From assembly GCA_040755195.1 (NCBI GenBank), contig JBFMBL010000011.1, forward strand, positions 5,754 through 69,753: 64,000 nt of DNA, written 5' to 3'. Source of the stretch: Bacillota bacterium (GTDB lineage Bacteria; Bacillota; Desulfotomaculia; Desulfotomaculales; Ammonificaceae). Numbering within the stretch: the first letter of the stretch is position 1; each line of letters opens with the position of its first letter. Positions 48,541 through 64,000 of this stretch are shown here, piece by piece. Under the pieces are notes generated by a model, which made no database searches, was not told the DNA's origin, and saw only the letters and a program-made list of their open reading frames with translations. Made by a program: the position numbers and the translations under genes.

Positions 48541-49248
48541 TCAAACAGCATTCGAATAAGCTGATTCCGAATCAGAAACCTTTTTCAGACTTCCATCTTC
48601 AAACCGGTAAACCACATCTGCCTCTTCCGCCACCTCATGCGAATGGCTCACAACAACTACACACTTGTTATATACATGAGCCAGTTCCTTGAATATTTCT
48701 ACTATTTCCCTTGCCGTACGCATGTCAAGATTTCCGGTGGGTTCATCCGCAAGTATTACCTCCGTATTACCGGCCAACGCCCGCGCTATCGCAACCCTTT
48801 GCTGCTGCCCGCCGGAGAGCTGCATGACATTTCGTTTTGCCTCATTCTCCTTGAGCCCAAGATCGTTTAACAACTTCAAAGCCCGTTGTTTACGTTCACC
48901 CTTATATGAACCCGAAAGCTCCATCGCCATGATAACATTTTCCAGCGCCGTCATGTAATTTATGAGATTATAGTTTTGAAAAATCAAAGAAACATTTTCC
49001 CTGCGGTATCTTGTAAGGCCTATCTTCTTAATATCCTGACCACCAAAAAGAACCCTGCCTTTCTGTGGGACGTCCAGGGCTCCGGCGAGAGCCAAAGACG
49101 TAGTTTTTCCGGAACCGGAAGGCCCGACTATTGTATAAAAGACACCTTTTTCGAAAGAAACACTGGCGTTTTTTAGAACATCCACCCGTTGCCCGCCGTT
49201 TGAATAGCCGAACGTAACATCATCAAATTCAAGCACCGCTTCCATCAT
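48541..49248 (-). CDS. MacB/LolD-type ABC ATPase (apparently orphaned)
   Basis: GPSGSGKTT, LSGGQQQRVAIARAL, ILADEPTGNLD. Confidence 0.8.
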   Translation of the reverse strand: MMEAVLEFDDVTFGYSNGGQRVDVLKNASVSFEKGVFYTIVGPSGSGKTTSLALAGALDVPQKGRVLFGGQDIKKIGLTRYRRENVSLIFQNYNLINYMTALENVIMAMELSGSYKGERKQRALKLLNDLGLKENEAKRNVMQLSGGQQQRVAIARALAGNTEVILADEPTGNLDMRTAREIVEIFKELAHVYNKCVVVVSHSHEVAEEADVVYRFEDGSLKKVSDSESAYSNAV

Positions 49249-49258
49249 ATCAGCCCCC

Positions 49259-49684
49259 TCATAGCGCCTTTGTCAAAATAGCATTCGGTTTGTAACGCAT
49301 TACTGTACCGGCCGGCAGTATTGTACCGGCAATTAATATAAGTAAACCCGCGGCTGACATTTGTTCCACCTCTGCGCCGGTGACTTGAATACTAAGAGAG
49401 TCGATAGGCTGGTAGTTTCGCTCGAACAGCCTTCCGAAGCGGCCCCCTTGCATCTGGGAAAAGCCTCTGCCGGCGCCTGCCGCAATATTACTGTCTCCTT
49501 GATCCTGTACCACCTGAATCTCACGTTCCAGTAACATATCACCCACACCCTGAGCTATGAATTTTCCGCTGAACACCGACAAGCCGAAAGCCACTACAGC
49601 AACCACCAGTACTTCCGCCAGATACTGGGTAATAATTTTCACCTTTCCTTCGCCCATTGACAAAAGCACGCCTGTTTCATACAT
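49259..49684 (-). pseudogene. C-terminal fragment of an FtsX-type ABC permease
   Basis: Only the last ~140 aa are present (GVLLSMGEGKVKIITQYLAEVLVV...VMRYKPNAILTKAL). There is an in-frame stop 12 codons upstream. The N-terminal ~2/3 is replaced by the neighbouring gene. Confidence 0.5.
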
Positions 49685-49709
49685 TCTCCTGTAACAGTCA
49701 CATCGGGTA

Positions 49710-50213
49710 TTACAAAATCACCGCCTGAATAACTACAGGAGTACCAACGGAAACATAGTCATAAATTTCATTTACATCTGCATTAGCCAGCCCCACGCAC
49801 CCCCAGGTCCAATCGCCGGGTCCGTTGGTATCATTGCCTCCATGAATTCCGATCCCACCTCCAAGAGGAGTATACTGAGGCGGAATTTGCCCGCTGTTTG
49901 TGGCACCGACTATGTAATCATAAGTCGCCTGGTCTATCAAACCCGAATTCAAACCCCGCCGGGCGTCATCAATGTTTGGGTAACTGAGCCGCATCCACCT
50001 GGTACCGAGATATTGGTCCGGCGGCGAAAATACCGATTTTTCAGCGATATAGAAAGATCCCTCCGGCGTTTTATGATCCCCCGCCACCTGTTTATCCTCC
50101 AGTCCGCTGTCTCCGATTTCCACCTGGTATGACTTGAGCGGGGTCGCACCCGAATACAGGGTCAATAGGCGGCCGGTTTTGTTTACGACTATCTTCAGAT
50201 TGGGAACCGGCAC
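49710..50213 (-). CDS. L,D-transpeptidase (YkuD) catalytic domain, separated from its LysM part by an in-frame stop
   Basis: GIHGGN...WGCVGL active-site region. The upstream same-frame ORF ends ...YPGQTLQIPG...GQY-TAA (50276-50274). No signal peptide is left. Confidence 0.6.
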   Translation of the reverse strand: MPVPNLKIVVNKTGRLLTLYSGATPLKSYQVEIGDSGLEDKQVAGDHKTPEGSFYIAEKSVFSPPDQYLGTRWMRLSYPNIDDARRGLNSGLIDQATYDYIVGATNSGQIPPQYTPLGGGIGIHGGNDTNGPGDWTWGCVGLANADVNEIYDYVSVGTPVVIQAVIL

Positions 50214-50273
50214 GGAAATCCCCTTTTCCTGCAGAATTGATGCCAGCGGCTGACCGGAGGTTTCATCCTTGTT

Positions 50274-50560
50274 TTAGTACTGACCTTCATTATTCGAACC
50301 TGCCGGTTCCGGTTTCACGCCGGGAATCTGCAGGGTTTGCCCGGGATAAACAACATCAATTTCCAACCCGTCAAAAGACTTAACACCTCTATTGCCTTCA
50401 ACACGCCTCAACAAGGCCTGAACCCTGGCAGCCAGTATTTTAAAGACTGAACGGTTTTGCAATATACTCGTCCGCGCCGAGGTCAAAGCCGAAAAGCTCA
50501 CGGATTCTTCTCCTCTTGCAGTCAGAATGATAATGGGAATTCCATCTCCAAAGCAATGGC
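50274..50560 (-). pseudogene. Chimeric remnant: OmpR-type response-regulator fragment (double frameshift) fused to the C-terminal end of a LysM domain
   Basis: IPIIILTARGEE and ILAARVQALLRR lie in one frame, while GFDLGADEYIAKPFS lies in another. The winged-helix start KSFDGLEIDVV runs directly into YPGQTLQIPG. Confidence 0.5.
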
Positions 50561-51032
50561 AATTGCCGGAACAGATACAAGCAGTATTACCCGCTTCTTT
50601 AGTGTATACAATAACCGGCTTTTAAAAAGCCGGCGGAATCCCTCATTTGAGACTGAAGAAAAGTGACTCCTTGTGGTAAAATTGTTGCATAGTAAGCGAC
50701 GAATGGAAGTTCAACATCAAGGTTGAAGAAGTACTGCTATCCGATGCTCCGCCGTTTAGACCGGCGATCACTGCCAGCCGTGGCGCGGCACCGGAACAGT
50801 ACCCGGATTTCTGGGAAGAAGAGGAAGACAACGGTTTTGAATATACCTTAAACGGCGAACCGCCCAATAACCGCAAACCCTTGATACACTAATGGTTGTA
50901 CGGCGGCCTTTAGCCGGAGAAACCGGCGGGGGTTAAAAGCCCCGACCGTAAATGCTCAGTAAACCCCACAGGTATTTTTTGACGGAATGCGGTTAGAAGT
51001 ATGCATGTCACGAATTGAAAGATATGGGATAT

Positions 51033-51060
51033 TTGTTAACCACGTGCTCCGTTGTATACT
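51033..51060 (+). promoter_or_regulatory. Sigma-70-like promoter
   Basis: TTGTTA (51033-51038), 16 nt spacer, TATACT (51055-51060) followed by ATAAT. Confidence 0.45.
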
Positions 51061-51092
51061 ATAATCATAAAGAAGAGAGTAGGAGAAGCCGA

Positions 51093-51308
51093 ATGAAAAT
51101 TATCGGTAGGAGAGACCCTGAGAAGCCCGTGCCCTTTGTGGAATACTGGAACACTTTTGTTGAGTTTTCTTTGGCGCTTCACGGTGGGGGATTTCCCATA
51201 CCGCGGGGCGTTTGGCGTTTCAGGAATTTTGAGGAGGCAAAAGAATGGGAGGACCGGATGCTCCTGGGGGAGAAACCCGCAGCAGGCCCCCCGCTAAAGA
51301 GGATCTGA
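51093..51308 (+). CDS. Hypothetical 71-aa protein
   Basis: ATG 51093 follows GTAGGAGAAG (MKIIGRRDPEKPVPFVEYW...). Overlaps the next gene by 64 nt. Confidence 0.4.
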   Translation: MKIIGRRDPEKPVPFVEYWNTFVEFSLALHGGGFPIPRGVWRFRNFEEAKEWEDRMLLGEKPAAGPPLKRI

Positions 51309-51745
51309 AAAACATCTGTAAAAGGTTCAGGGAGTTAGGCGTAAAGTACATCCTCGTCGGAGGAGTAGCCGTCAACCTTTACGGCAGGCCCAGGATGACA
51401 CATGACATTGATTTCCTGGTCGATCCTTCGCCGGAAAATATTAAGAAAGCAAAAGAGGCTTTAATGGTACTTGAAGACGGAGCAGCGCGCGACTTGCGGC
51501 CGGATGACCTGGAAAAATACGGAGTAGTTAGAATCGCGGACGAGGTTGTAGTGGATTTGATTGGCAAAATCGGTGACGTCAACACGGATAACGCGGGAAC
51601 TGTTTACTTTGACCTGGAGGGTGAGCGGATAGTTGTCGCCGATCTTGACACCTTGATTGAAACAAAAAAGGGTTTGAGGGAACGGGACAAAGAGGACCTT
51701 TTTTTCTTATTACTGAAAAGGCAAAAAATCACCCCAAATACCTAA
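51245..51745 (+). CDS. Nucleotidyltransferase-fold protein
   Basis: ATG 51245 lies 7 nt after GAGGAGG. Motif LVGGVAVNLYGRPRMTHDIDFLV (GG..A...R.T.D.D). Confidence 0.55.
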   Translation: MGGPDAPGGETRSRPPAKEDLKNICKRFRELGVKYILVGGVAVNLYGRPRMTHDIDFLVDPSPENIKKAKEALMVLEDGAARDLRPDDLEKYGVVRIADEVVVDLIGKIGDVNTDNAGTVYFDLEGERIVVADLDTLIETKKGLRERDKEDLFFLLLKRQKITPNT

Positions 51746-52129
51746 TTTTAAGGTTCATTCAGGATGGTATAAAAAGATATAAATCAAATCCTTGAACCAT
51801 ACGGAAATAATTCAGCGCTTAGAAATCTGAAACATCAAGGCTACCCGCCGGAAACGCTGCGCTTATTCCCGCCCAACTTTGCTCGATCCTCAGATTTGTT
51901 CAGTATAAGGTAACTCCGCTGCAACTCCTTTCAAAGCCGCAGAAATAAAGGCCGAACCGCGGGTTATAGCGCGATTCGGCGCGGGTGAGCAAACCTGTAA
52001 GCCGAGTTCTCCGGAAGAAACACCCAAGGGTCTCTTAGCGCACGTCTTCAAGGAGTTACAAGGGTTTAAGGGTCCGCATGCCGTGCGGGCCCGCAAAAAT
52101 CTACATTCACCAAACCTTGGAGGTGTGTT

Positions 52130-52249
52130 ATGTCGCAGTTACCTGAAATTATCCGCGAGTTCCTGCGTTACCTGCGGGTGGAGAAAAACGCCTCCCCCCT
52201 CACCCTGGCGGCCTACCGTTCGGACATCAAGCCCCTCGATGATCCATAG
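52130..52249 (+). pseudogene. N-terminal 39-codon remnant of a XerC/XerD-type tyrosine recombinase
   Basis: MSQLPEIIREFLRYLRVEKNASPLTLAAYRSDIKPLDDP-stop. This is the SAM-like core-binding motif only; no catalytic domain follows. Confidence 0.55.
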
Positions 52250-52401
52250 CCTAAGCGCAAGGATTGGCGGCGTCAGTTAGAACATCACTGATAACCACGG
52301 TCGCCGTGCTTCATCCGGAGAAAAGGGTTACAGGATCATCGGACAGCGACCTGAAGAAACCCTTTTGCTCCATGATAACGTAGCCAACACTGCCGGATAG
52401 A

Positions 52402-52429
52402 TTGACTTTGAAATTGACAATGTTATAAT
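52402..52429 (+). promoter_or_regulatory. Sigma-70-like promoter of the mntA-hepT operon
   Basis: TTGACT (52402-52407), 16 nt spacer, TATAAT (52424-52429). TTGAC repeats nearby could be operators. Confidence 0.55.
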
Positions 52430-52467
52430 AGTAAATAGTTGGTAGTTGACTTTTTGAGGGGTTAGCT

Positions 52468-52761
52468 ATGGGCGGTATTAACGAACAACTAACAATTAAA
52501 CGCGAAGAAGTTCTGCGTATAGCTGCGCGGCATGGCGCTTATAATGTTCGTATTTTCGGCTCAACGGCGCGAGGTGAAGCCGGGCCGGGTAGCGACGTGG
52601 ACTTTGTGGTAGATCTGGAGCCCGATCGAAGCCTCTTTGATCTCGGCGGCTTGTTGATGGATCTGCAGGCTCTATTGGGATGTAAGGTTGACGTGGTAAC
52701 GGAGCAGGGATTGCACTGGTACATTCGCGATCAAATCTTGGCGGAGGCTAAGCAGTTATGA
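52468..52761 (+). CDS. mntA: MNT-type nucleotidyltransferase antitoxin MntA (type VII TA)
   Basis: [23 protein letters not shown] minimal NTase motif. Confidence 0.85.
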
Positions 52762-53084
52762 AGGACGATAAACTTTATCTGGTCCATATTAGCGAATGTA
52801 TTGGGCGCATTGAGAAATATGTTGTGGACGGCAAAGAGGTATTTATGACCTCGACGCTCATTCAGGATGCGGTGCTACGCAACCTGCAAACCTTAGCAGA
52901 ATCAACACAGCGTCTTTCCGGTGCTTCAAAAGCGGCCCATCCGGAAGTTGATTGGTATAAAATCTCGGGTTTTCGGAATGTACTGGTTCATGATTATTTA
53001 GGTGTGGATTTGGAGAGAGTTTGGAAAGTGATTGAGCGTGATTTGCCAGGTTTAAAACGTTCAATTATTTCTATGCTGAAGTAG
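52758..53084 (+). CDS. hepT: HEPN (DUF86) toxin HepT
   Basis: ATGA overlap with mntA. R-x4-H-x-Y motif (FRNVLVHDY). Confidence 0.85.
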
Positions 53085-53243
53085 CGAACCCGCAGGTCCC
53101 TTTGCTGCACAGGTAAAGTGGCAAAATGAACGACGCACAAGAATATGGAGTGTTTTTAAAAATCCGGTCTGTCGACTCTTTTGGGGTCTCTGCCGGTGAA
53201 CCTTTCGGCGTGCCCGTAGTCCATAAACTACCGGCACACGGGT

Positions 53244-54431
53244 TTACCGAAGAAACGTGTAAGGATCCTTTATATCTACTTTCTTCCCTTCGGGCTCGGC
53301 ATGTCTTCTTCTACCCAACACCGGATCATTCCTGGCCACTATAGGATCAAACCAATCTGCCTTGTCCCTGGCCCAGGCAAGCCATTCAATCATCCGTAAC
53401 CGTTTTTCCTCGTCCGCTTCGTTGTGAAGTCCCGCTTCTATAGCTGCAATATACTCCCGGATAATACAGGCTGTATGCCAATCCGTGGCTGCATTCTCTA
53501 AGGCTGCAACTCTTTCGAACTCTTCTTGCTGGCGTAAAGCGCGTTGATACCTGCGTTCTGCTTCCTCTTGCCGGCGCCGTTCTTCCCGTTCACGATCCTC
53601 GCGGGCCACACGGATCCTCTCCGATGTCTCAAACAACTCAACAATGGCATCGCCTAACAGTGAATCCAGAGTCCTAGTTTTAGTGTCTCGGAAGTTTCTG
53701 CGCTTGGCATATCGGTCGTCCAAAAAAAGCGTGAGTCCGTCGGACTCCTTCATGATGATCCGTATCTTTTCGCTTCGGACAAGGGCGTAAGTATTGCCGT
53801 CACGTCCGTCTACAACGACCGTACAATCCAGTGATTCCAGCGTTCGTACGAATGCATCCATCAAACGGTATGCCCGATGCATGGAGTCGCCTGACACACG
53901 TAGCTCGAGTACGTGCTTATCGGGTTCTTGCTTGTTTCTGTGACTTAAATAAGAAAGCCCGCTTCCATAGAAATCATACCTTTTCCTTTCACGTTCCCGC
54001 TTTTTTCTAAGCGCCATTTCATCACGGTGTTCGACAATCAGAGAGTGGGGTCGCCGTAACTGTTCGCTAATCTCGATGCTCGCACAGACATCCAATATTT
54101 TCTGGCGTTCAGCTTCATCAAAGAAAGTAAGTATCGCTTTCCCACCATCTGCTGTTTTCTCTGTACCGATTATTGACACCTCGGAGCGGTTACCGTAGAT
54201 AATTTTGGGGCCTTTATGGGGTGGGAGAGGAGTTTTTTTCATCTTCCCACCGGCACGAAGCTTCGCCCAGTAACCACGAGGAGGTACAGGGATGTTCATT
54301 CGTTTACACACCTTGCGCAACGCGACATTTGATACACCATAGCGTTTGGACACAATGGTCACAGGCTCAGCCCAGACTTCTTTATAGAGTTTTTCGCGTT
54401 CATACACATTTTCAGCCAATTCTTGCACCAC
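53244..54431 (-). CDS. Conserved hypothetical protein with N-terminal HTH-like motif and Arg/Glu-rich coiled-coil region
   Basis: YGVSNVALRKVCKRMNIPVPPRGYWAKL N-terminal motif, REDREREERRRQEEAERRYQRALRQQEE segment. Confidence 0.65.
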   Translation of the reverse strand: MVQELAENVYEREKLYKEVWAEPVTIVSKRYGVSNVALRKVCKRMNIPVPPRGYWAKLRAGGKMKKTPLPPHKGPKIIYGNRSEVSIIGTEKTADGGKAILTFFDEAERQKILDVCASIEISEQLRRPHSLIVEHRDEMALRKKRERERKRYDFYGSGLSYLSHRNKQEPDKHVLELRVSGDSMHRAYRLMDAFVRTLESLDCTVVVDGRDGNTYALVRSEKIRIIMKESDGLTLFLDDRYAKRRNFRDTKTRTLDSLLGDAIVELFETSERIRVAREDREREERRRQEEAERRYQRALRQQEEFERVAALENAATDWHTACIIREYIAAIEAGLHNEADEEKRLRMIEWLAWARDKADWFDPIVARNDPVLGRRRHAEPEGKKVDIKDPYTFLR

Positions 54432-54594
54432 CTTCTTTAACTAGGCGATATACTCAGCTACACTCCGCTTTCTCTTACGTCGATTTCCTACAATTGTAGC
54501 AAAGTAAGGGGGCTTGAAAAAGCCGAAAAAGATCCTTTATGCTTTAAGGTAATTGTGTTCCAGGTTTTTCCATGACATCTTCCATCGGTTTCGG

Positions 54595-55977
54595 TTAAAA
54601 AGAAACAGTTCGCGTCTCCTGGTCCCAGTTCGGCTTCAGGCCCAAGTTCTCGGAGACAAAGCGCAGGGGTATGAATGTCCTCCCGTTCCGCACCTCCGGG
54701 GCCACCTGCAGGGGGACCACCTGCCCGTCCACCACAGCCTCTTTCCCGCCGCTGCGCAGGACCACCTCACGCCCGTTCAACAGGACCGTAGCCTTTCGCT
54801 CCCGCTGGTCCCAGAATACGGTTGCACCGAGGTGCTCAAGAACGCCGCGCACCGGCACCATCGTCGTCCCCGGCCTCGAGAGATAACCGTTCACCGGCAG
54901 GAGTGTACCGCCAACGCGGATGCGAACGCTATCCTCCCCGTCAACCGTGACGACAATACAGTTTGAGAGCTTACGACCCGGGCGCACCTTGTACTCCCCG
55001 CTGTAATAGAGCCCGCACGAAGCGTTGCCGTCCAACCCGATCGCGTCCCTGAGCCCGAGCTTCTGCACCGTCCGGGCCATCTCGGCCATGGTCACGCCGG
55101 AAACCGTGCCCATCGTAAGCGTGCCGTCAGGTTTGACGCCGATGAAGCTCCAGGAAGCCTTCGTGAAGAACTTGGGCTCTTTCATCTGGTCGGCGGCCAG
55201 GTCGAGAACGTCTTTGCCGTCGCGCACCAGGAGCGGGCCCGCCTGGACGATGTGCCGGACGTCATCCCAGTCCAGCCGGTTCCCTTTTTCGTCGGCGAAA
55301 GTGTACCGCAGCTGCACCGAATCCCCTACGGCGAACCGGGAGGCTATCTCCCCCGCGCCCCGGCCGAACCCGATAACGTAGCCGTCGGATGGGATCTGCA
55401 CGGGGCCCGCCTGTATCGCAGCCACCCTGCCCTGCCGTATGGTGACAGTCGTGCCGGCAGGCGCCTGTATCGCCTGACCGAAGCTGGGTGTGAAGATAAC
55501 CACGGCCTGCGGGTCTTCGACGTTCCGGTTGACGTCCCAGGCGTACCAGTTATTCGGCCACGTTTCGATGCCGTTGATACCGCCTTCTATCCTCACGCGC
55601 AGCCGCGCCACCTTCACCCTGCCGTCCGCCGTGATGCCGACAGCCCCGCCGGCGTTCCCCGCCCGGTACAGCACCCCGTCAGCCATAATAGTGCCCCACG
55701 AGGTCATGTCGCTGTATGCGTTGAAGAAGGTGCCGTTCACCGCCGCTAAGGCGCCTGAGGCCTTCGCCATCGACGCAAGGTCGGCGGTCTGCCCTGTCCT
55801 GCCGTTCGCCAGCATAGGCCGTATCTGAACCCCGGGACTGGAGAGGTCGACGTTTACCATGCTGATCGGATGGCCGTCAACTTCGACGGCATAAAAAGAA
55901 GCCGGCACACCGGCCGATGCGGGTGTGCCGGGGAAAAACATGAATAGAGCTATAACGATTGAAAGCAACTGTCTCAA
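54595..55977 (-). CDS. Secreted phosphodiester glycosidase (DUF2233/NAGPA-like) with C-terminal stalk domain
   Basis: Signal peptide. AAVNGTFFNAY, IVQAGPLLVRDGK, AIGLDGNASCGLYY. C-terminal TTMVPVRGVLEHLGATVFWDQ repeats. Confidence 0.75.
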   Translation of the reverse strand: MRQLLSIVIALFMFFPGTPASAGVPASFYAVEVDGHPISMVNVDLSSPGVQIRPMLANGRTGQTADLASMAKASGALAAVNGTFFNAYSDMTSWGTIMADGVLYRAGNAGGAVGITADGRVKVARLRVRIEGGINGIETWPNNWYAWDVNRNVEDPQAVVIFTPSFGQAIQAPAGTTVTIRQGRVAAIQAGPVQIPSDGYVIGFGRGAGEIASRFAVGDSVQLRYTFADEKGNRLDWDDVRHIVQAGPLLVRDGKDVLDLAADQMKEPKFFTKASWSFIGVKPDGTLTMGTVSGVTMAEMARTVQKLGLRDAIGLDGNASCGLYYSGEYKVRPGRKLSNCIVVTVDGEDSVRIRVGGTLLPVNGYLSRPGTTMVPVRGVLEHLGATVFWDQRERKATVLLNGREVVLRSGGKEAVVDGQVVPLQVAPEVRNGRTFIPLRFVSENLGLKPNWDQETRTVSF

Positions 55978-56032
55978 GATACTCCCCCTCTCAATCCTTT
56001 TTGCTGCTGCCTGACGTCCACAACTTTACCTT

Positions 56033-56404
56033 TCATACGCCGCGGGACTCGCAGCTATCTCCGCCGTTTTCGGCTAATGGGGCATCAACCTGATAACCGA
56101 AATGGGATTCTTTTTTGTGTATTTTTTTCCAGAAATCATGCACGTCGCACATCTCCAAAACCCACAGCAAGGCACGGATCACCAGGAAGATCATCCCTCC
56201 CACTATTGCACAGAGAAGTATAACTCCACCCAGGAGACCCATTACCGGACTGACCACCGCGGCCTCGCACCCGTTAGCCGGGACTTCCCACGGTTCGACC
56301 TGCTCTCCGGTGTACGGGTCTTCGCCGTAATTTTCTATCCAATTTTCTCTGAACGCCCTGCCGCTGATAACGTTTCTCGCGTATTCGTCCGCCGTCCAAC
56401 TCAT
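56033..56404 (-). CDS. Small membrane protein (hypothetical)
   Basis: AAAGGGG ribosome-binding site. TM segment VVSPVMGLLGGVILLCAIVGGMIFLVIRALLWVL. 83 nt downstream of the RNase H-like gene. Confidence 0.5.
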   Translation of the reverse strand: MSWTADEYARNVISGRAFRENWIENYGEDPYTGEQVEPWEVPANGCEAAVVSPVMGLLGGVILLCAIVGGMIFLVIRALLWVLEMCDVHDFWKKIHKKESHFGYQVDAPLAENGGDSCESRGV

Positions 56405-56487
56405 TATATTTCAGCCCCTTTCTTAGCTACTCCACCCTACTCTGTTATATCAGCTATCTCGAAGAATCCCGTCTCAGATAATACACG

Positions 56488-56898
56488 CTATACCGCGGTG
56501 TCTATAGCAACTATTTGGCGACACAAGGCGTCGGCCTGCTTGTTCAGATACCGCGGCAGCCATACAAACTCAATATTAAGTTGACATCCTACAAGGATCG
56601 CCAGTATACCCCGGATAGCTCTCTTGTAGTTGGGATTGCGGCACTTCCCACCGTTTAAATACAGTACGGCCGCCAGACTATCAGAATATAGAATGACGTC
56701 CGAAATGCCACGTTTAGCTGCATATGCAACTGCCAATTTGATCGCCTCTAACTCGCCCTGAAGCGAATCAATAACCGAGATTCGCCACGCCTTCGCACTG
56801 AGTACAGCTCCGTTGCCGGCCTGGACAACAAACCCGACATAGCAAGGGCTCCCTGCCCGTAAAGGGCGAAAACAACAATCACAATATATACGAATCAA
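56488..56898 (-). CDS. RNase HI-like (RVT_3-type) domain protein
   Basis: DEDD-type positions: IYCDCC, GELEAIKLA, LYSDSL, LPRYLNKQADALC. TTG start. Confidence 0.7.
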   Translation of the reverse strand: MIRIYCDCCFRPLRAGSPCYVGFVVQAGNGAVLSAKAWRISVIDSLQGELEAIKLAVAYAAKRGISDVILYSDSLAAVLYLNGGKCRNPNYKRAIRGILAILVGCQLNIEFVWLPRYLNKQADALCRQIVAIDTAV

Positions 56899-57145
56899 CG
56901 GGGCACCTCCTTATATTCAGGTCTTGGTAGAAAAAGCTTTCCTGCGTTCTTCTGAAATCTGCACGGCAGAGAGGTACGTAGTGAATCCGCTAACTGAATA
57001 GACTATAACCTCTTGCCGGAAGAACAGCGCTTGCCGCTGTTTATATCGGGTTATAAAGCTAAATTTATTTGGTTTCTTCCTCCTTCCCGAGACTTCAAAG
57101 GAGCGCGTAAATATCTAGGTACTAAGTGAAAATCCCTCTTATTTT

Positions 57146-57173
57146 ATTATATCCTATTATAGAATATAGTCAA
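57146..57173 (-). promoter_or_regulatory. Strong sigma-70-like promoter driving the RNase H-like gene through a ~240-nt leader
   Basis: Minus strand TTGACT (57173-57168), 16 nt spacer, TATAAT (57151-57146). Confidence 0.55.
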
Positions 57174-57220
57174 TAAATATTTAACTATTATTATGTAAAA
57201 AATAATCTTTACCGTCTTGT

Positions 57221-57248
57221 TTGACGCCAAAGATTCTGTTATTATACT
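57221..57248 (+). promoter_or_regulatory. Divergent sigma-70-like promoter for the XRE regulator
   Basis: TTGACG (57221-57226), 16 nt spacer, TATACT (57243-57248). Confidence 0.5.
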
Positions 57249-57294
57249 CAATAAAGCGTTAATTATATTTTTACTTTTGCTAGGGGTTGATAAG

Positions 57295-57711
57295 GTGGGC
57301 CGGCCAACCGGGAAAGAACTATCCGCATACCTCTTCGGTAAACGGCTTAGGCTCTTGCGGGAGTCAATGGGGGGTATTAACCAATCCGAATTAGGCGCTA
57401 TGCTGGGTTTGAAGCCGTACCTCGTTCACAGGTACGAGCACGGCAACAACGGCAACCTGCCAAGGCCGAAAACGCTTAAGAAGATCGCGGACTTCTTCGG
57501 CGTCTCGCTTGAATGGCTGCTCTCGCTGGCAGATAACCTTAACGAACCTTTACCTGTAGCTCCGGATCATCTGGCTGAGCTAAAATCACGGTACTATCTG
57601 ACTCTCGCGCTCCGCTGCAGATCTGTTCCTGAAACAAAAATGCCGGAAGCGGTGGAGGAATTAGAGAGGTTTACAAAACTACTGGTTGCTTGGGCCAAGG
57701 GTAAAGATTAA
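57295..57711 (+). CDS. XRE-family helix-turn-helix transcriptional regulator
   Basis: GTG 57295 follows AGGGG. LFGKRLRLLRESMGGINQSELGAMLGLKPYLVHRYEHG. The track start at 57217 lies inside the promoter. Confidence 0.75.
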   Translation: MGRPTGKELSAYLFGKRLRLLRESMGGINQSELGAMLGLKPYLVHRYEHGNNGNLPRPKTLKKIADFFGVSLEWLLSLADNLNEPLPVAPDHLAELKSRYYLTLALRCRSVPETKMPEAVEELERFTKLLVAWAKGKD

Positions 57712-57773
57712 ATGTAGGGTTCAAGCGGAGATCATTTTGGAAGTGCTACGTTGCGAGTAATATCCTGCGGCGG

Positions 57774-58109
57774 CTATTCTTCTGATTTCCTTAAAACCAC
57801 CTCTGCTTGCGCTTCAAAGAAGAGTTCCGCGTCTTTGCGGTTGATTTCCTCATAGACGGCATATCCTTCTTCAAGATCCTTTTCATATACGGCATCCTCC
57901 TCGTTGTCCCAGTCCGAGAAGGTTGGTTCGGCCAGTTTCAAAAAGCTGTTAAGCTCGATATGATCGGTGATGCGCCCAAACAGTTCCCTAAGTTCCTCAG
58001 GTGTAAGTTCATTAATCGCCTCAAGAATCTTTTCCTCTTTCCTTGACACAACGATCACCCCACACAATGACAACATATTTGTATATTCCGGCCCAAATCG
58101 TCCACCCAT
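57774..58109 (-). CDS. Small acidic hypothetical protein (start uncertain, possibly GTG near 58040)
   Basis: ORF with EKILEAINELTPEELRELFGRI and a very acidic C-terminal half. Confidence 0.45.
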   Translation of the reverse strand: MGGRFGPEYTNMLSLCGVIVVSRKEEKILEAINELTPEELRELFGRITDHIELNSFLKLAEPTFSDWDNEEDAVYEKDLEEGYAVYEEINRKDAELFFEAQAEVVLRKSEE

Positions 58110-58364
58110 TCCGATTTAAGTTCTGTCGGCTCATTCTGGAGAAAAACGCCCATTCCCTTCCTCACTCCGCCAAGCCGTCACTGGCATACCTTCCTCGTGC
58201 GCCCCGGTCCGTCTAACCATATACCCTACCATGTCTCCCCCGGCTTAACGTCCGAGGAAATCACGGCCGACTGTCCAGCCCTTTTACCGCCGCCAAACGG
58301 CGAACACAACCGCGAACCGCCCTCTCTTCCCCATCCTCACTGGGCTTAGCGTTGTTCAACGCTC

Positions 58365-58907
58365 CTAAAACCCGCGGGGAGGGAACTTGGCGAGTTGTTG
58401 CTGCAGACTTTCTACCCATGCCTCAAGTTCATTGGGAGTGCATTCTAGATCCACGTAAAGATCTTCTTCCACTTCATGGCTAGGCGCCCACGACGGTCGG
58501 TTTTCTAATTCGAAGAACACTTGCAACACTATAGATCCATTATTTCTTCCTTTAAATTTAAAAGATAGATTCGGCTCAACAAAATTGATTTCGGTTTCAG
58601 CCTCATTACCGCTTTTGATAGCGCTGATCCAACTAATAAGCGATATAATCTCCACAGTTGAAAGACACGGATCTATGGTCTGCCAACTTCTTCCCCTGAT
58701 TGCCGCAAACGTTGAAATCATCAGCCAGTTTGAATCATCTTTGTCATGAGCAATTTCGGGAAACTGATAGTTTACAATCTTAATACTGAACTGGTTGCCA
58801 TTTGGTCCGTGTAGAATAACCTCTGATGGGAAATTGTTTGGATTATCTCGTTTCTTTACCATGACCTCGGGTTTACCCGTACCCTTATCTATTATTGGAA
58901 TTAACAT
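58365..58907 (-). CDS. Hypothetical protein, possibly a WapI-like immunity protein
   Basis: Pattern FSIKIVNYQFPE...DDSNWLMIS...W...L...E...L..WI resembles my memory of the WapI/YxxG immunity family. Not verified. Confidence 0.4.
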   Translation of the reverse strand: MLIPIIDKGTGKPEVMVKKRDNPNNFPSEVILHGPNGNQFSIKIVNYQFPEIAHDKDDSNWLMISTFAAIRGRSWQTIDPCLSTVEIISLISWISAIKSGNEAETEINFVEPNLSFKFKGRNNGSIVLQVFFELENRPSWAPSHEVEEDLYVDLECTPNELEAWVESLQQQLAKFPPRGF

Positions 58908-59010
58908 TCACTGTTCTGTAAAAAATATCGTTTACCCTGCAAAACCGCCAGTTGTTCACCTTCACTGCCACGTTCCAAGAGCCCTTCTGCCCAAGGAAAT
59001 CTCCCCCCGC

Positions 59011-59784
59011 TTATCTCGTACAATATGTTCTCATGAACTGGTCGGTAATGCGTCCCATGCGTTCATCAAGAATGCTATACACCCTCTGCTTTATATTTTC
59101 CGGCACTCCGCCGTAAAAGGCCTGCGCTATTCCCCCGGTTATACACGCCAGCGTATCTGTATCACCACCCAGGGAAACCGCAGTTCTAATTGCGTCTTCA
59201 AAATCGACAGAGTCAATAAAGGCTCGTATCGCCTGCGGCACGGTTCCTTGAGACGATTCGTCGAAGTAATACGACGGGCGGATCTCATCGACGTGTTTAC
59301 TGAGGTCGTAGCCAAAGGTCGTCTCGGTGTACACCTTAATGTCCTCTTTACTGCTTCCGGTGCGCGCAAGGAAAATGGCAACCGCGGCTGCCCGACCACC
59401 CTTGATCCCTTCCGGGTGGTTGTGCGTGATCTCTGTGAATTCCTTTGCCTTTTTAAGCACTGACTCGAGCGTATCGAACGCGAACCCGACCGGGCTGATA
59501 CGCATTGCCGCACCGTTTCCCCAACTGTTGTACGGTTCCGTTTGACTGCTCATTGCCCAGGCGGAAAAACGGCCGCCATATCCGCAGTTCGGGTACCAAC
59601 GGAAGAACTTCTTCAGATTCGCCTCGTACGGTTCACCGGTGAGGATGGAATCCGCAAGGGCAACGGTTAGCACAGTATCATCGGTAAAGAAGCAATGCCT
59701 CGAAAAAAGGGGGAAGTCCTTCGTCTTAATATTGTTCCACTCGTATACCGACCCGATAATATCGCCGGCAATCGCACCCATCAT
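59011..59784 (-). CDS. ADP-ribosylglycohydrolase family protein
   Basis: ATG 59784 follows GGGGAG. MMGAIAGDIIGSVYE, FFTDDTVLTVALA, GGDTDTLACITGGIAQAFYG. Confidence 0.8.
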   Translation of the reverse strand: MMGAIAGDIIGSVYEWNNIKTKDFPLFSRHCFFTDDTVLTVALADSILTGEPYEANLKKFFRWYPNCGYGGRFSAWAMSSQTEPYNSWGNGAAMRISPVGFAFDTLESVLKKAKEFTEITHNHPEGIKGGRAAAVAIFLARTGSSKEDIKVYTETTFGYDLSKHVDEIRPSYYFDESSQGTVPQAIRAFIDSVDFEDAIRTAVSLGGDTDTLACITGGIAQAFYGGVPENIKQRVYSILDERMGRITDQFMRTYCTR

Positions 59785-59943
59785 CGCTACGTCTCCCCAA
59801 CTTAACCCATAAAACATGCTACTGAATTGTTTCTATAATGAAGATAATGCTTGTCAATTTACCCATATTATTTATAACATTCTTTATAATGTTAGACAAA
59901 ACCTGTATCTACTTTTAATTACTCAAAAAACGGAGGGAAAACA

Positions 59944-61149
59944 GTGGCATCGTCGTTTGGCTGGGTAGATTATTCGGAAACGGAACGCCGGCGGATGATA
60001 GAGCTGATAAGTCGCTTTGGTGAGCAGGATACGCGGGACGAGCTGGGAATCGGCACAGTCCGTGACGCTTTTGCAGACCTAATGTTTCCGGGTACCAGCA
60101 CCATCCAAACCAGGGCCAGGTACATGCTCTTCATACCATGGATCTATATCGCGCACGAAAGACGCAGGACCCCGACGGGCGAAGTCAGAGGTAAGGCCCG
60201 GCAGGATGAGGTGTCCCTTATATACGCCCTCCTCAAGACCGCAGACACCGACGGGGTGATCGGCAAGGAGGCCAAGGCTGGCCTTCAGCGCCTTCCCAGC
60301 ACGATATACTGGTCTGGTCTCGGGGTATGGGGGATCAGACGTTTCGAAGGCTCGCAGGAACAGTATCACCGTTCCTTGTCTCGCTGGTACATCCGGAAAG
60401 CGAACCTGCGGAAAGAGGACGGGGAGTTCCTCGACGGCATCCTCAGAGAAAACTGGGATCCGGCTATTCCGCCCCAGCCCGAAGGATTTCCACATTCCGC
60501 CTCATTGGAACTGACCAAGGAAGAAGCCGTCTACCTTTACGACCGGATAGTCAAAAACTGTAATAACAGCGTTCTGGCACACCTTGTAGACAAAACGCGG
60601 CCCGCGGAAGTTAAATTCCCATGGATGCATCCCGAGTTGGCTTCATTCCCGCCCAACCTTCGCGAGCAGATTGAACACGCACGCAACTTTTCCGAGGCAA
60701 TGCACGGCGCCGCCCTGCTGTACAACCTCATGCTGGCGGAGCAAAAAAGAGATAACGAGCTTATCATTGAATACGAAGCCGCACTAACCGAATGGTCCGG
60801 AAGACTCGCCAGACGCCCGGAACTCCGCGCGTGGGACCGCCGGCGCTTCTGGGAAACCGTCGAACAACAAAACGCCGCTATCCCCTATTCCACCCGGCGC
60901 TTTGTCGACAGATGGCTGGACAGCGCCCTGCTTCGCTTCGGATCGGAAATGGTCGGGGATAAAAGCGCCCGCGACCTGATAGCGGAGCGGGAATACACAT
61001 TAAAACGGAGCCGGGCGCGACTGCAAAACCGGCGCGCCCTCGACAATTGGAACGGAGCGGCGGGGACCGCACAACTCAATTACCGCTGGCGGGTCGTAAA
61101 CAGCATTGTCAATGACATTCTGCGCGGATTGGAGGGCAACAATGCTTAA
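59944..61149 (+). CDS. DUF6361-like protein, first gene of a three-gene putative defence operon
   Basis: GTG 59944 follows GGAGGG. N-terminus GWVDYSETERRRMIELI...DELGIGTVRDAFADLMFPGTSTIQTRARYMLFIPWIY matches my recollection of DUF6361. Confidence 0.6.
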   Translation: MASSFGWVDYSETERRRMIELISRFGEQDTRDELGIGTVRDAFADLMFPGTSTIQTRARYMLFIPWIYIAHERRRTPTGEVRGKARQDEVSLIYALLKTADTDGVIGKEAKAGLQRLPSTIYWSGLGVWGIRRFEGSQEQYHRSLSRWYIRKANLRKEDGEFLDGILRENWDPAIPPQPEGFPHSASLELTKEEAVYLYDRIVKNCNNSVLAHLVDKTRPAEVKFPWMHPELASFPPNLREQIEHARNFSEAMHGAALLYNLMLAEQKRDNELIIEYEAALTEWSGRLARRPELRAWDRRRFWETVEQQNAAIPYSTRRFVDRWLDSALLRFGSEMVGDKSARDLIAEREYTLKRSRARLQNRRALDNWNGAAGTAQLNYRWRVVNSIVNDILRGLEGNNA

Positions 61150-62977
61150 CCCCGATTCTCGTATTATGTATGCGGAGGCTCTCCGCCCGCCTGAAGGTTA
61201 TACTCTGGACAAAGCCGTTGCCACAACGTTTTCCCTTGACCTGACCACTGTCCTTATTGTCCCCCTGTCTTTAGCGGCCTTCGAATGCAGCAGTTTCGAG
61301 AACCCGGACCCGCTGATAATTATCGAAGCACTGCGCAGGACCGCGCAAAAGGTTACCGTCTTTTGTCAAGAAGGACAGATAAAGGTCCCTGCATCCGATA
61401 CTCCCCTCTATTCACAACTGGAATCAACCGTCGTGGAAGTCAACTCTCCTAACGCCGGAGGAGTTTTTCACCCAAAGACGTGGCTGCTGCGGTTTGTTTC
61501 AGAAGGACAACCGGTACTCTACCGGTTCCTCTGCCTTTCGCGCAACCTGACGTTCGACCGCTCATGGGACACCATTCTTACCCTTGACGGGTATGTGGGT
61601 AACAGGCGTTTCGCCCGCAACCGCCCGCTGGCCGATTTTCTGAAAGCGCTGCCGTCCCTGGCGAAACGCCCTTCGGAGGAACTTGCCGCCGGCATAAGCA
61701 ATCTTGCGGATGAGCTGATGAGGGTTAACTTCGAGCCGCCCGACGGGTTTAACGACTTCAGCTTTCGCCCCATAGGAATACCGGGGTACCGGCGTTTTTC
61801 AATTCCATCCCCCTACAACCGTCTTCTGGTCGTGTCTCCGTTTTTGAAGAGCGGCGTGCTTGAAAGACTTCTGGCCGAATGCAGCGGCCGGGTTATCCTT
61901 ATTTCGCGGCAGGAGAGCCTGGACGAGCTGCCGGAAAAGCTCAAAGAAAGGTTTTCGGCGGTATACATTCTGGACGACGCAGCCGATATTAAAACCATCG
62001 CCGGTGACGTTGACGCCGCAAAGGACAGCGACTCCGACCCACCGTTGTCGGGACTCCATGCCAAGCTTTTCGTCGCCGAAACCGGTTTGGAAGCAAGGGT
62101 CTGGACCGGCTCGGCCAATGCCACCAACAGCGCGTTTAATAACCGGAATGTCGAGTTTATGGTTCAGCTTAACGGAAAGCGGAAGGATGCCGGCATAGAC
62201 CGCTTCCTTGGATCAGAAGAAGACAAGGAATGTTTTAGAAACATGCTCCTGCCGTACCGGAATGGAAGCGTCAGTGACCCCAACGCCGAGTTGATTAGTA
62301 AAATGGAAGCCCTGCTCGATGCCGCCAAAGAGGAACTCTCCGGCCTGGACCTTACCCTGGAAGCCTTCCCGGCGGGAGAGCAGGTATACGACCTGTGTTT
62401 ATCCGCCGGAAGACCCTTTACGAAGGACAGCGTCAGCATCCGGTGCCGGCCGGTAACGTTAAAGCCCGCCCAGGCGCTGACAATCGACGCCCTGGGACCC
62501 GGCAGCAAGCTTGTGTTTCACCGGCTCTCGCCGGTATCCCTTACCGGCTTTATGGCTTTTGAGCTGAGCACCGCATCAGGCGGACTGACAAGGTCGACGC
62601 GTTTTGTCTTCAACCTTCCGTTTACCGGAGGACCGGCTGACCGGGCGGAACTGGTGCTGCATCACGTCATTTCCGACACAGACCGGTTTATCCGCTATAT
62701 CCTTCTACTCCTGTATGACGGGGAAACATCTTCGACCGATATAGCCTCTCTGACTCGAAGTCATAGCAACGGTGAAAGCCGCTTCGTTCAGAGCCCCTGG
62801 CAGCAGCCCGTCCTTGAAGAGATGGTCAGGGCGTACAGCAGAAACCCCGAAAAGCTGAAGAGGATTCACAAACTGGTTGACGATCTAAGGCGGCCGGGCG
62901 GGCGCAATGTGATTCCCGACGAGTTCGACGACATCTGGAACGCCTTTATGGAGGGTTTAAAAAATGAACAACGATAA
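61142..62977 (+). CDS. Phospholipase D-superfamily (two HKD-like motifs) putative nuclease
   Basis: ATG 61142 overlaps the upstream stop (ATGCTTAA), with a GGAGGG ribosome-binding site. Motif 1 FHPKTWLL...SRNLT (HPK at 61469-61477). Motif 2 GLHAKLFV...GSANATN (62057-62128). Confidence 0.8.
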   Translation: MLNPDSRIMYAEALRPPEGYTLDKAVATTFSLDLTTVLIVPLSLAAFECSSFENPDPLIIIEALRRTAQKVTVFCQEGQIKVPASDTPLYSQLESTVVEVNSPNAGGVFHPKTWLLRFVSEGQPVLYRFLCLSRNLTFDRSWDTILTLDGYVGNRRFARNRPLADFLKALPSLAKRPSEELAAGISNLADELMRVNFEPPDGFNDFSFRPIGIPGYRRFSIPSPYNRLLVVSPFLKSGVLERLLAECSGRVILISRQESLDELPEKLKERFSAVYILDDAADIKTIAGDVDAAKDSDSDPPLSGLHAKLFVAETGLEARVWTGSANATNSAFNNRNVEFMVQLNGKRKDAGIDRFLGSEEDKECFRNMLLPYRNGSVSDPNAELISKMEALLDAAKEELSGLDLTLEAFPAGEQVYDLCLSAGRPFTKDSVSIRCRPVTLKPAQALTIDALGPGSKLVFHRLSPVSLTGFMAFELSTASGGLTRSTRFVFNLPFTGGPADRAELVLHHVISDTDRFIRYILLLLYDGETSSTDIASLTRSHSNGESRFVQSPWQQPVLEEMVRAYSRNPEKLKRIHKLVDDLRRPGGRNVIPDEFDDIWNAFMEGLKNEQR

Positions 62978-64000
62978 CTGCCGGCGTCCCGACGTCGCAG
63001 CGATCATGGCAGGTCTTAAGGATTTCCAGCGGCGTTCGGCCGAATATGTTTTCAGACGTTTTTATCTGGACGAAAACCCTGCCGGCCGCTTCCTTGTCGC
63101 CGATGAAGTCGGCCTGGGGAAAACCCTCGTCGCCCGCGGGATCATTGCCAGGACCGTTGATTTTTTGTGGGACAGGGTTCCGCGCATCGACATCATCTAT
63201 CTCTGCGCAAACAGCGAGATCGCGCGCCAGAACATCAACCGGCTGAACATTTTGGAGGACCAGGAGTTTGCGCTTTCCTCCCGGATCACACTTCTCCCGC
63301 TCAAAGTCGGACACCTGAACCATAATCATGTTAACTTCGTCTCTTTTACGCCAGGTACGTCCCTCGACTTAAAATACAGCACAGGCACTATGGATGAGAG
63401 GGCGCTCCTTTACCGCCTGTTGGAAGAAGAATGGGGTTTCGGCCGGCGCACAGGCCCGATCAACCTGCTTCAATGCAGCGCCGGTAAAGATAACTGGCGA
63501 AGATATCTAAAAAGTTTTACCGGCTCTATCGACCAGGAGCTTAAATCCGGATTTATCGAGGCAATCCGCAGCCGGAGCGATATCCGGGAACGATTCCTGG
63601 GTCTCGCAGAAAGGTTTCAATATTTTCGCAAACACCTTCCCGGAGACGACCAGAAAGATCGAAACATGCTGATCGGTGAACTGCGGGGCATTCTGGCTCA
63701 ATGCAGCATCAGCGCACTTGAACCGGACCTTATCATCCTGGACGAGTTCCAGAAATTCAAACACATACTGGACGGAGAGGACCAGGTCAGCACCCTGGCG
63801 CGGCAGTTGTTCAACTACTGCGACCGGAACAACAAGGCCAGGGTTTTGCTGCTGTCCGCCACGCCGTACAAAATGTACACCATGGATCACGAAGCCGGCG
63901 AAGAGGACCACTACGCAGACTTTATCCGTACCGTGGGGTTCCTTCTCGACTCGCCCGCGGAAACCGAGGAATTCCGCAAAGAACTCAGGAACTACCGCAA
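62964..64000 (+). CDS. SF2 helicase-like ATPase (5' part only, runs off the window)
   Basis: Not in the track because no stop lies inside the window; I translated it by hand with no stops to 64000. ATG 62964 overlaps the PLD gene by 14 nt. Motif I ADEVGLGKT (63111-63125), motif II ILDEFQ (63741-63752), motif III LLSATP. Confidence 0.8.
   Translation, partial: MNNDNCRRPDVAAIMAGLKDFQRRSAEYVFRRFYLDENPAGRFLVADEVGLGKTLVARGIIARTVDFLWDRVPRIDIIYLCANSEIARQNINRLNILEDQEFALSSRITLLPLKVGHLNHNHVNFVSFTPGTSLDLKYSTGTMDERALLYRLLEEEWGFGRRTGPINLLQCSAGKDNWRRYLKSFTGSIDQELKSGFIEAIRSRSDIRERFLGLAERFQYFRKHLPGDDQKDRNMLIGELRGILAQCSISALEPDLIILDEFQKFKHILDGEDQVSTLARQLFNYCDRNNKARVLLLSATPYKMYTMDHEAGEEDHYADFIRTVGFLLDSPAETEEFRKELRNYR

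Follow-up and report, generated by a model that had tools for sequence, protein, structure and literature searches.

At its 3' end, the window (the whole 64,000-nucleotide stretch of DNA that was analysed) very probably carries a complete, intact ZacA-ZacB-ZacC Azaca operon, which lies in an accessory region of low GC content in the genome of an uncultured Bacillota and would work as the split restriction enzyme outlined below. Azaca is a published three-protein anti-phage system, listed in PMC10952713 among the systems of Millman et al. 2022 that have a PLD domain, and by sequence the trio in the window is an intact copy of it. Thus, the trio is an ordinary further example of a known system, and no new kind of system. 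On its own the locus is of little weight: PADLOC and DefenseFinder would label it Azaca, and the system is already published and partly characterised biochemically.

The assignment is carried by family profiles. The PADLOC models of ZacA, ZacB and ZacC were matched over their full lengths (E 1e-142, 3e-179 and 0, the last with the complete ZacC from the overlapping contig L001), and no other defence family came near these scores in the PADLOC profile search of the three proteins. The sequence-only reading had proposed a candidate anti-phage system and had tentatively given the name Azaca to a trio of DUF6361, PLD and helicase genes. The full-length family matches support the former, and that name is correct, since the three models match end to end. 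In the Pfam and PADLOC searches which that reading had put forward as a check, the DUF6361 and DEAD domains scored above their cut-offs and the Zac families were matched. The public record labels the genes only as 'DUF6361 family protein', 'phospholipase D family protein' and 'helicase-related protein'. The sequences are divergent, with at most 59% (ZacA) and 53% (ZacB) identity to anything outside their own population; measured against the nearest database neighbours outside the trio's own 90%-identity cluster, the values are 57-59% for ZacA and 53% for ZacB.

All three genes lie on the forward strand and are translationally coupled. The first, zacA (59944-61149), has a GTG start and encodes 401 amino acids, zacB (61142-62977) starts with ATG and encodes 611, and zacC starts at 62964 and runs past position 64000, so that the window holds the first 345 of its 1067 codons and a further 2167 nt lie beyond. 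The overlaps of 8 nt between zacA and zacB (61142-61149) and of 14 nt between zacB and zacC (62964-62977) are as had been read from the sequence alone. A GGAGG box stands 6-9 nt upstream of each start (59932-59936, 61131-61135 and 62950-62954). The zacB reading frame can be extended to a TTG at 61106; the ATG at 61142 is preferred because a GGAGG box precedes it.

Between zacA and a divergent ADP-ribosylglycohydrolase gene lies a forward-strand spacer of 126 nt (59818-59943), the presumed promoter region, with a GC content of 27% as against 54-57% in the genes. The operon had been said to have its own AT-rich promoter region, and this stands for the base composition but not for the promoter: the forward strand of the spacer has one weak sigma-70-like match (TTGTCA-18-TAACAT, 59851-59880), and such matches are not above chance (2 found, compared with 2.4 expected from shuffled sequence). 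What might point to promoter function is the AT-richness of the spacer, and nothing beyond it. At the other end, the helicase gene is cut by the window edge, as had been noted, and the full gene was taken from contig L001, which has zero mismatches to window positions 51981-64000. On that contig, the sequence at the zacC stop codon has a weak hairpin that resembles a terminator, and no further forward-strand gene follows. The operon ends at zacC, and no other gene belongs to it.

The signature gene of Azaca, zacA, encodes a DUF6361 protein. ZacA scores 223.9 bits against Pfam PF19888 (DUF6361; cut-off 25, E 4e-66), which bears out the DUF6361-like call made for the first gene, and 474.5 bits against the PADLOC ZacA model (E 9.5e-143, profile positions 1-395 of 396). 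Its AlphaFold2 model is confident and all-helical (pLDDT 88.1, pTM 0.85). A Foldseek search found no relatives of this fold, the best E values being 0.9 in the PDB and 0.8 in the viral BFVD, and no PDB entry was matched by sequence or profile. ZacA is predicted to have an orphan all-helical fold, and this is a new observation here.

The second protein, ZacB, matches the PADLOC ZacB model from position 1 to 585 of 586 (595.6 bits, E 3e-179), and its score against Pfam PLDc_2 is 19.8 bits, under the cut-off of 27, as is the case for most homologues. A single chain carries two motifs, H110-x-K112...N135 and H306-x-K308...G323-S324-x-N326. The motif residues are identical to those of the window copy in at least 95% of 69 ZacB sequences, and they are invariant, H110/K112 and H306/K308 included, in an alignment of 72 sequences. 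The canonical Asp at the K+5 position is replaced by Arg117 in the first motif and by Glu313 in the second, so the ZacB motifs are of the HKN type and neither is a strict HxK(x)4D. The earlier term 'double-HKD PLD' was therefore essentially right in its two intact motifs, but not in the strict sense of HKD. The structural model (pLDDT 83.5) has a double-PLD fold followed by a C-terminal beta-sandwich and a helical region. Foldseek ranks Tdp1 first (E 3e-7, about 430 aligned columns), and after it come SauUSI, the NgoAVII R protein and BfiI. Sequence identity in the Tdp1 match is 11-12%, with a TM-score of 0.32-0.47. The second PLD lobe resembles the PLD domain of SauUSI both by fold (E 7.6e-4) and by the ZacB alignment profile (E 9e-4). 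These models predict that ZacB is a single-chain double-PLD fold whose nearest structural matches are Tdp1 and restriction nucleases of the PLD type, SauUSI among them, again a new observation.

The part of ZacC in the window (345 aa) already matches the PADLOC ZacC model at profile positions 5-334 of 1019 (383.7 bits, E 7e-115), and the full-length protein of 1067 aa extends this to positions 5-1016 (1142.9 bits, E 0). The window part contains a Walker A motif (G50-L-G-K53-T54), DEFQ at 260-263 and SAT at 298-300. In Pfam it matches DEAD with 31.7 bits (cut-off 26), and its ResIII score of 20.7 bits is below the cut-off of 22.5. Helicase_C lies at residues 887-943, with motif V intact and motif VI reading Q935-R-x-G-R-x-x-R942, and both motifs are of the SF2, SNF2/RapA-like kind. 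Walker A, DEFQ, SAT and motifs V and VI are common to at least 95% of 58 ZacC orthologues. The SF2 helicase call is thus upheld, with all SF2 motifs intact in the full protein.

The operon stands at the end of a stretch (48001-59817) with a GC content of 50%, as against 59% for positions 1-47000. This stretch includes an MNT/HepT toxin-antitoxin pair (52468-53084) and a WapI-family immunity-like gene (58365-58907), in agreement with the earlier description of a low-GC accessory stretch with a toxin-antitoxin pair and immunity-like genes. The island also holds gene fragments, namely an FtsX-like piece, an AbiEii-like piece and the N-terminal piece of an integrase. Two DNA-repair genes, an ExoIII-like gene and a methylpurine glycosylase gene, lie about 13 kb upstream of the trio. 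In a relative with 99% identity, the trio adjoins Iet, a GajB-like helicase, PDC-S46 and a type III methyltransferase. The locus documents a divergent, intact Azaca of an uncultured Bacillota lineage within a variable island of defence and accessory genes.

Across genomes, the order A-B-C on one strand is kept in 59 of the 60 that have enough downstream sequence, and these come from many bacterial and archaeal phyla; the trio is syntenic, a point that the sequence-only reading had proposed to check. There is no conserved fourth gene, and any given flanking gene recurs in at most 6 of these 59 loci. The distribution is patchy and crosses phyla, with variable flanks; among the carriers of the cassette are anaerobic Bacillota, Methanothrix archaea and members of many other phyla. 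Homologues of ZacA are found on 48 plasmids, and on a Cronobacter plasmid the same trio adjoins a tyrosine recombinase. A truncated Azaca remnant occurs elsewhere, in L030. The zacABC genes form a complete cassette of their own, which is passed between phyla and plasmids. This comparison describes Azaca as strictly three-gene, self-contained and horizontally mobile, without a linked methyltransferase.

Given the gene fragments in the surrounding island, and the fact that a truncated Azaca exists in L030, the window copy might be thought a remnant without function that decays together with the genomic island around it. This is highly improbable: all three reading frames are full length against the profiles, every catalytic residue is conserved, and the frames are kept in three independent copies with 99% identity. 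Comparison of the window copy with two 99%-identical copies gives more codons with synonymous than with non-synonymous differences (28 to 16 and 42 to 23), and zacABC is under purifying selection.

The same low standing is given to the proposal that the trio is a housekeeping DNA-repair module, in which a Tdp1-like phosphodiesterase and a helicase clear protein-DNA adducts and immunity plays no part. Tdp1 is the best structural match of ZacB, with both lobes aligned (E 3e-7), and the upstream ExoIII-like and glycosylase genes would suit such a function. However, a repair module sits poorly with patchy cross-phylum spread, variable flanks and plasmid carriage, with a low-GC accessory setting next to toxin-antitoxin and immunity-like genes, and with the defence genes beside the trio in the 99%-identical relative. 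Moreover, homologous operons protect against phage by experiment, as reported in bioRxiv 10.1101/2025.07.10.664194.

That preprint describes two active homologues, BmAzaca (Bacillus) and KpAzaca, and protection by Azaca against T4 of more than 10^6-fold. According to the same source, degradation of T4 dsDNA by BmAzaca requires all three proteins, the Walker A motif of ZacC and the PLD active site of ZacB; the cut site is degenerate (5' A|NT), with almost no sequence specificity; and purified BmAzaca prefers T4 DNA, which is modified with glucosyl-hydroxymethylcytosine (glucosyl-hmC). This preference is a correlation with glucosyl-hmC, short of demonstrated modification dependence. It suggests that targeting by Azaca is modification-dependent, which for the window copy would hold by analogy with the Bacillus homologue.

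The predicted structures, a Tdp1-like double PLD for ZacB and an orphan fold for ZacA, provide mechanism hypotheses for the Azaca family. ZacC would load on, or translocate along, incoming DNA using ATP, and the ZacABC complex would recognise phage DNA by one of its features, most probably a bulky hypermodified base. ZacB might then cut via a covalent phosphohistidine intermediate between its two HxK lobes, with ZacA as an adaptor or sensor subunit. In the preprint, however, mutants of conserved ZacA residues were unaffected in complex formation and in cleavage in vitro, which leaves the sensor role without support. The whole would be a split, modification-dependent (type IV-like) restriction enzyme. 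It counts against this mechanism that T-even-like hypermodified phages are, to our knowledge, not known for the uncultured Bacillota host of the window. Such a nuclease needs no cognate methyltransferase, which would explain why none is present in the window between 52 and 64 kb. The sequence-only reading had found no methyltransferase and had left self/non-self discrimination unexplained; the absence stands for this interval, and the discrimination is partly answered by the published preference of BmAzaca for T4 DNA.

It is possible, if unlikely, that the Azaca operon instead acts by abortive infection or indiscriminate DNA degradation. A phage cue sensed by ZacA or ZacC, for example a protein or a replication intermediate, would trigger a non-specific PLD nuclease that also degrades host DNA, with no modification-dependent discrimination. 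The highly degenerate published cut site would agree with this, as would the behaviour of Hachiman, a related nuclease-helicase system that degrades DNA indiscriminately once triggered (PMC12278908), and a ZacA fold with no known relative leaves room for a sensor role. However, in the substrate panel of bioRxiv 10.1101/2025.07.10.664194 purified BmAzaca alone preferred T4 DNA, apparently without the addition of a phage factor, which argues that discrimination lies in the DNA substrate itself.

On a more speculative reading, which is unlikely, ZacA would be a sensor or specificity subunit of a new type, and Azaca would recognise a wider range of phage DNA features than glucosyl-hmC. It is suggested because the cassette occurs in phyla where T-even-like phages are not expected and because the ZacA fold has no relative. 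If true, Azaca would be a widespread surveillance nuclease of three subunits, driven by ATP, that recognises its targets on a new principle.

Compared with published Azaca, the window copy has the same three families, gene order, tight coupling and intact PLD HxK and SF2 Walker A and B motifs; it differs in its divergent sequence and in its origin from the metagenome-assembled genome of an uncultured Bacillota. DISARM (DrmABC and a methyltransferase) and Mokosh (MkoA/B/C) are likewise defence systems with a PLD-family nuclease and a helicase. Since all three share this pairing, and since models of DrmD, DpdE and BrxH match part of the C-terminal helicase lobe of ZacC weakly, one might assign the trio to a DISARM-like or Mokosh-like family other than Azaca. 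This is extremely unlikely, because ZacC-specific scores are 20 times higher than those for DrmD, the window has no linked methyltransferase or DUF1998 gene, and the 59 syntenic loci have no conserved fourth gene. At E <= 0.01, the PADLOC DrmA, DrmB, DrmC and Mko models matched none of the window proteins, and the Mko models did not match full-length ZacC. Full ZacC has a 50-residue partial match to one DrmA model (E 8.6e-10) and a partial match to DrmD over about 50 residues of the C-terminal lobe (NCBIfam DrmD 53 bits, cut-off 610). The DISARM or Mokosh logic that had been invoked earlier holds as an analogy of nuclease and helicase but not as a family, the Drm and Mko matches being short and partial at most.

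In DISARM, the DrmA helicase comes with DUF1998 and a methyltransferase and without DUF6361; neither the core of DrmA and DrmB (DUF1998) with the DrmC PLD nuclease nor the methyltransferase was found with the trio in the window. Mokosh has an Upf1-like SF1 helicase (COG1112) and no DUF6361, whereas the ZacC motifs are SF2. The PLD fold of Tdp1, like that of ZacB, is pseudo-dimeric within a single chain and carries two HxK...N (HKN) motifs. Tdp1, a repair enzyme of eukaryotes, works on its own, whereas ZacB depends on ZacA and ZacC and has about 230 additional aa at its C-terminus.

SauUSI (PDB 7clg), an ATP-dependent, modification-dependent type IV enzyme, also couples a nuclease of the PLD family to an SF2 ATPase and works without a methyltransferase. 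SauUSI dimerises to build its active site. Its domains all lie on one polypeptide, with one PLD domain in each chain and a separate domain for target recognition; the window has three genes in place of such a polypeptide, and only the PLD lobe is similar. In Azaca, the functions are spread over three proteins, with a two-lobed PLD in one chain and an extra DUF6361 subunit.

Three forward-strand genes at the end of the window lie where the sequence-only reading had placed them, and their coordinates and both of their overlaps were read directly from the sequence. The first, zacA (59944-61149), has a GTG start, encodes a DUF6361 protein of 401 aa and ends in TAA at 61147-61149. The second, zacB (61142-62977), has an ATG start, encodes a phospholipase D (PLD) nuclease of 611 aa and ends in TAA at 62975-62977, while the third, the SF2 helicase gene zacC, starts with ATG at 62964 and runs past the window end, with 345 codons inside the window. 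The ATG of zacB lies within the end of zacA (an 8-nt overlap), and that of zacC within the end of zacB (14 nt). Since a GGAGG box precedes every start codon by 6-9 nt, translational coupling in a Gram-positive host fits this arrangement. Between zacA and a divergent ADP-ribosylglycohydrolase gene is a spacer of 126 nt (59818-59943) with a GC content of 27%, compared with 54-57% in the zac genes. The claim that the operon has its own AT-rich promoter region holds for the AT-richness, but the promoter itself is presumed, since the sole sigma-70-like match on the + strand of the spacer is no better than chance.

The helicase had been described as cut off by the window end. A Logan contig, L001, matches 51981-64000 of the window with zero mismatches and continues for a further 2457 nt, which gives a complete ZacC of 1067 aa with its Helicase_C lobe at residues 887-943, and about 570 aa separating motifs III and V. 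The zacC stop codon coincides with a weak hairpin and T-run, and no obvious further gene is present in the 290 nt past it. When this copy is compared with two others of 99% identity, found in sister samples (contigs L083 and L085), nearly all of the differences fall in zacC (L001 10984-14187; 37-56 codons), whereas zacA differs at 1 codon and zacB at 6-8. Within ZacC, amino-acid changes are densest near residues 450-478 (both copies), 675-743 (L085 only) and 955-1024.

General family databases recognise the trio unevenly. Pfam DUF6361 matches ZacA at 223.9 bits (cut-off 25), PLDc_2 matches ZacB below its cut-off, and ZacC has only weak matches, to DEAD (31.7 bits, over the cut-off of 26), ResIII (under its cut-off) and Helicase_C. 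Pfam by itself is not decisive for ZacB or ZacC. ZacA and ZacB lack an NCBIfam model, and the NCBIfam matches to ZacC are all sub-threshold. The exact proteins are deposited at NCBI as MEW6172338-MEW6172340, on a 73,842-bp contig of a 'Bacillota bacterium' MAG, where ZacA is called just a 'DUF6361 family protein', ZacB a 'phospholipase D family protein' and ZacC a 'helicase-related protein'. It is the PADLOC defence-system profiles that settle the identity of the trio. The ZacA profile matches over positions 1-395 of 396 (E 9.5e-143), the ZacB profile over 1-585 of 586 (E 3e-179), and the ZacC profile over 5-334 of 1019 in the truncated frame (E 7e-115) and end to end in the full-length protein (1142.9 bits). 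The name Azaca, which had been tentatively put forward for such a trio, is thus correct, and the profile matches support its reading as a candidate anti-phage system. The word Azaca is absent from the text of the Millman et al. 2022 preprint, where system names sit in figures and tables, and the system is therefore credited to that work via secondary sources.

The catalytic motifs are well conserved in alignments of 69 ZacB and 58 ZacC orthologues. In ZacB, H110-P-K112, R134-N135, H306-x-K308 and G323-S324-x-N326 are as in the window in at least 95% of the orthologues. The same holds in ZacC for the N-terminal Walker A motif (G50-L-G-K53-T54), DEFQ (260-263) and SAT (298-300), and for the C-terminal motifs V (T905-S...G911-L-D913) and VI (Q935-R-x-G-R-x-x-R942). 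All three reading frames are kept in the two 99%-identical copies, and the codon differences from them are more often synonymous than non-synonymous (28:16 and 42:23). For these reasons, the Azaca copy in the window looks functional. The locus is an intact and otherwise ordinary member of the published system.

Conservation of gene order was examined by scanning a ZacA alignment against one genome per GTDB species, which gave 583 relatives, of which the best 80 were fetched. These 80 come from Bacillota, Chloroflexota, Acidobacteriota, Planctomycetota, Pseudomonadota, Actinomycetota, Cyanobacteria and Methanothrix-type archaea. In sixty of their loci the sequence extends 5.3 kb or more past zacA, and in 59 of these zacB and zacC follow immediately on the same strand. 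The sole exception is a remnant in an Anaerolineae MAG (L030 1717-3193), where an intact zacA is followed by a zacB cut after ~83 codons and then by unrelated sequence; zacC is absent. Within 4 kb of the 59 syntenic loci there is no conserved fourth gene or methyltransferase, in line with the earlier remark that none is visible upstream, and the commonest flanking gene occurs in at most 6 of the 59. The cassette thus stands by itself, with no methyltransferase linked to it. In addition, 48 plasmids carry ZacA homologues; in a Cronobacter IncFIB plasmid, an overlapping zacABC trio adjoins a tyrosine recombinase.

Up to about 47 kb, the window carries housekeeping genes (acetolactate synthase-like, dihydroxy-acid dehydratase, aminotransferase, ExoIII-like and methylpurine glycosylase). 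In this part, the GC skew of the + strand flips sign at ~23000-24000, with a cumulative maximum at about 23-24 kb, which could mark a gene-orientation switch or a replication landmark. A lone GC dip to 44.6% is found at 7001-8000, amid 60-70% GC.

The low-GC accessory stretch described upstream of the operon is borne out: at 48-60 kb, GC drops to about 50%. An FtsX-like fragment (49259-49684), an AbiEii-like nucleotidyltransferase fragment (51245-51745) and a 39-aa N-terminal piece of an integrase (about 52130-52249) suggest a decaying mobile island 5' of Azaca. They are followed on the + strand by the overlapping toxin-antitoxin pair MNT (NTP_transf_2)/HepT (52468-53084), in which MNT has a match to PDC-S09, a candidate defence family in PADLOC (E 2e-38). 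A stand-alone RVT_3 (RNase H-like) protein of 136 aa (56488-56898, - strand) adjoins an XRE-family regulator (57217-57711) with weak matches to the PADLOC CapH and HTH defence regulators. A gene of the WapI family, immunity-like but lacking a visible toxin partner, and the ADP-ribosylglycohydrolase gene occupy 58365-59817 on the - strand; an ABC ATPase, a YkuD protein and a NAGPA/copper-amine-oxidase-domain protein are also found in the stretch. The ADP-ribosylglycohydrolase gene accompanies Azaca at 99% identity in all three sister-sample contigs (L001, L083 and L085). Among the best 80 of the 583 loci, there were 0 matches to it, the WapI or XRE genes or a 111-aa ORF beside Azaca.

The 99.1%-identical relative L083 has different DNA just past zacC, which places Azaca at a variable defence-island junction. 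Its island (L083 7661-17344) contains a GajB-like UvrD helicase, IetS and IetA, a type III methyltransferase and PDC-S46, the last split over two ORFs, possibly by a frameshift. Because the window genome and L083 cease to be similar 38 nt past the zacC stop, this island is not attributable to the former.

The predicted structures point to both familiar and orphan components. The ZacB model (pLDDT 83.5) matches tyrosyl-DNA phosphodiesterase 1 (Tdp1) in Foldseek (E 3e-7, about 430 aligned columns), followed by three restriction enzymes, SauUSI, NgoAVII and BfiI, through their PLD nuclease domains; by profile, the only match among PDB sequences is a marginal one to SauUSI (E 9e-4). In Tdp1, a PLD enzyme, one chain forms a pseudo-dimer and carries two HKN motifs. 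Given these resemblances, the description of ZacB as a double-HKD PLD is essentially right as to its two lobes and motifs, but the motifs are of the Tdp1-like HxK...N form, with Arg117 and Glu313 at the canonical Asp positions. A Tdp1-like fold would also suit a housekeeping role in DNA repair, which is nevertheless unlikely in view of the patchy and mobile distribution of Azaca and a genomic context that points to defence. The only detectable solved relative of ZacC, by sequence or profile, is the SNF2-type ATPase RapA, with the match confined to motifs V and VI. The AlphaFold2 model of ZacA is confident (pLDDT 88.1, pTM 0.85) and almost wholly helical; it has no significant Foldseek match, the best E-value being 0.9 among 350,542 PDB chains and 0.8 in the viral BFVD set, and sequence and profile searches of the PDB gave no match.

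The biochemistry of homologues is described in a recent preprint (bioRxiv 10.1101/2025.07.10.664194), which reports that Azaca operons protect >10^6-fold against T4. Purified Bacillus ZacABC (BmAzaca) is reported there to favour T4 double-stranded DNA, with cleavage that starts at 10 nM and depends on ZacA, ZacB and ZacC together, on the Walker A motif of ZacC and on the active site of the nuclease. According to the same source, mutation of conserved ZacA residues left complex formation and cleavage unaffected, and the authors name glucosyl-hydroxymethylcytosine as a possible cue. The reported cut site is degenerate (5' A|NT). By analogy with these homologues and from the fold results, we infer that a three-step model is most likely for the window copy. 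ZacC would engage DNA in an ATP-dependent manner, the ZacABC complex would recognise a feature of phage DNA, probably a bulky base modification, and ZacB would then cut by way of a phosphohistidine intermediate that arises between the two lobes of the protein. ZacA may serve as an obligatory adaptor or sensor, with a fold class lacking known relatives. The main rival account has Azaca act by activation-dependent, indiscriminate degradation (abortive infection). The residual novelty is in the Azaca family at large, namely the orphan ZacA fold and the sensing step, rather than in the window locus.

The proposed likeness to DISARM and Mokosh extends to the idea of a PLD nuclease paired with a helicase, which is all that Azaca has in common with them. 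At E <= 0.01, the window proteins match none of the DrmA, DrmB, DrmC and Mko models. The full-length ZacC has one DrmA match of 50 residues (E 8.6e-10), and its C-terminal lobe matches DrmD, DpdE and BrxH over only about 50 residues; such matches are far under the curated cut-offs (53 bits versus 610 for DrmD in NCBIfam). The logic proposed for Azaca would instead be a split version of a SauUSI-like type IV restriction enzyme, which would explain the absence of a methyltransferase.
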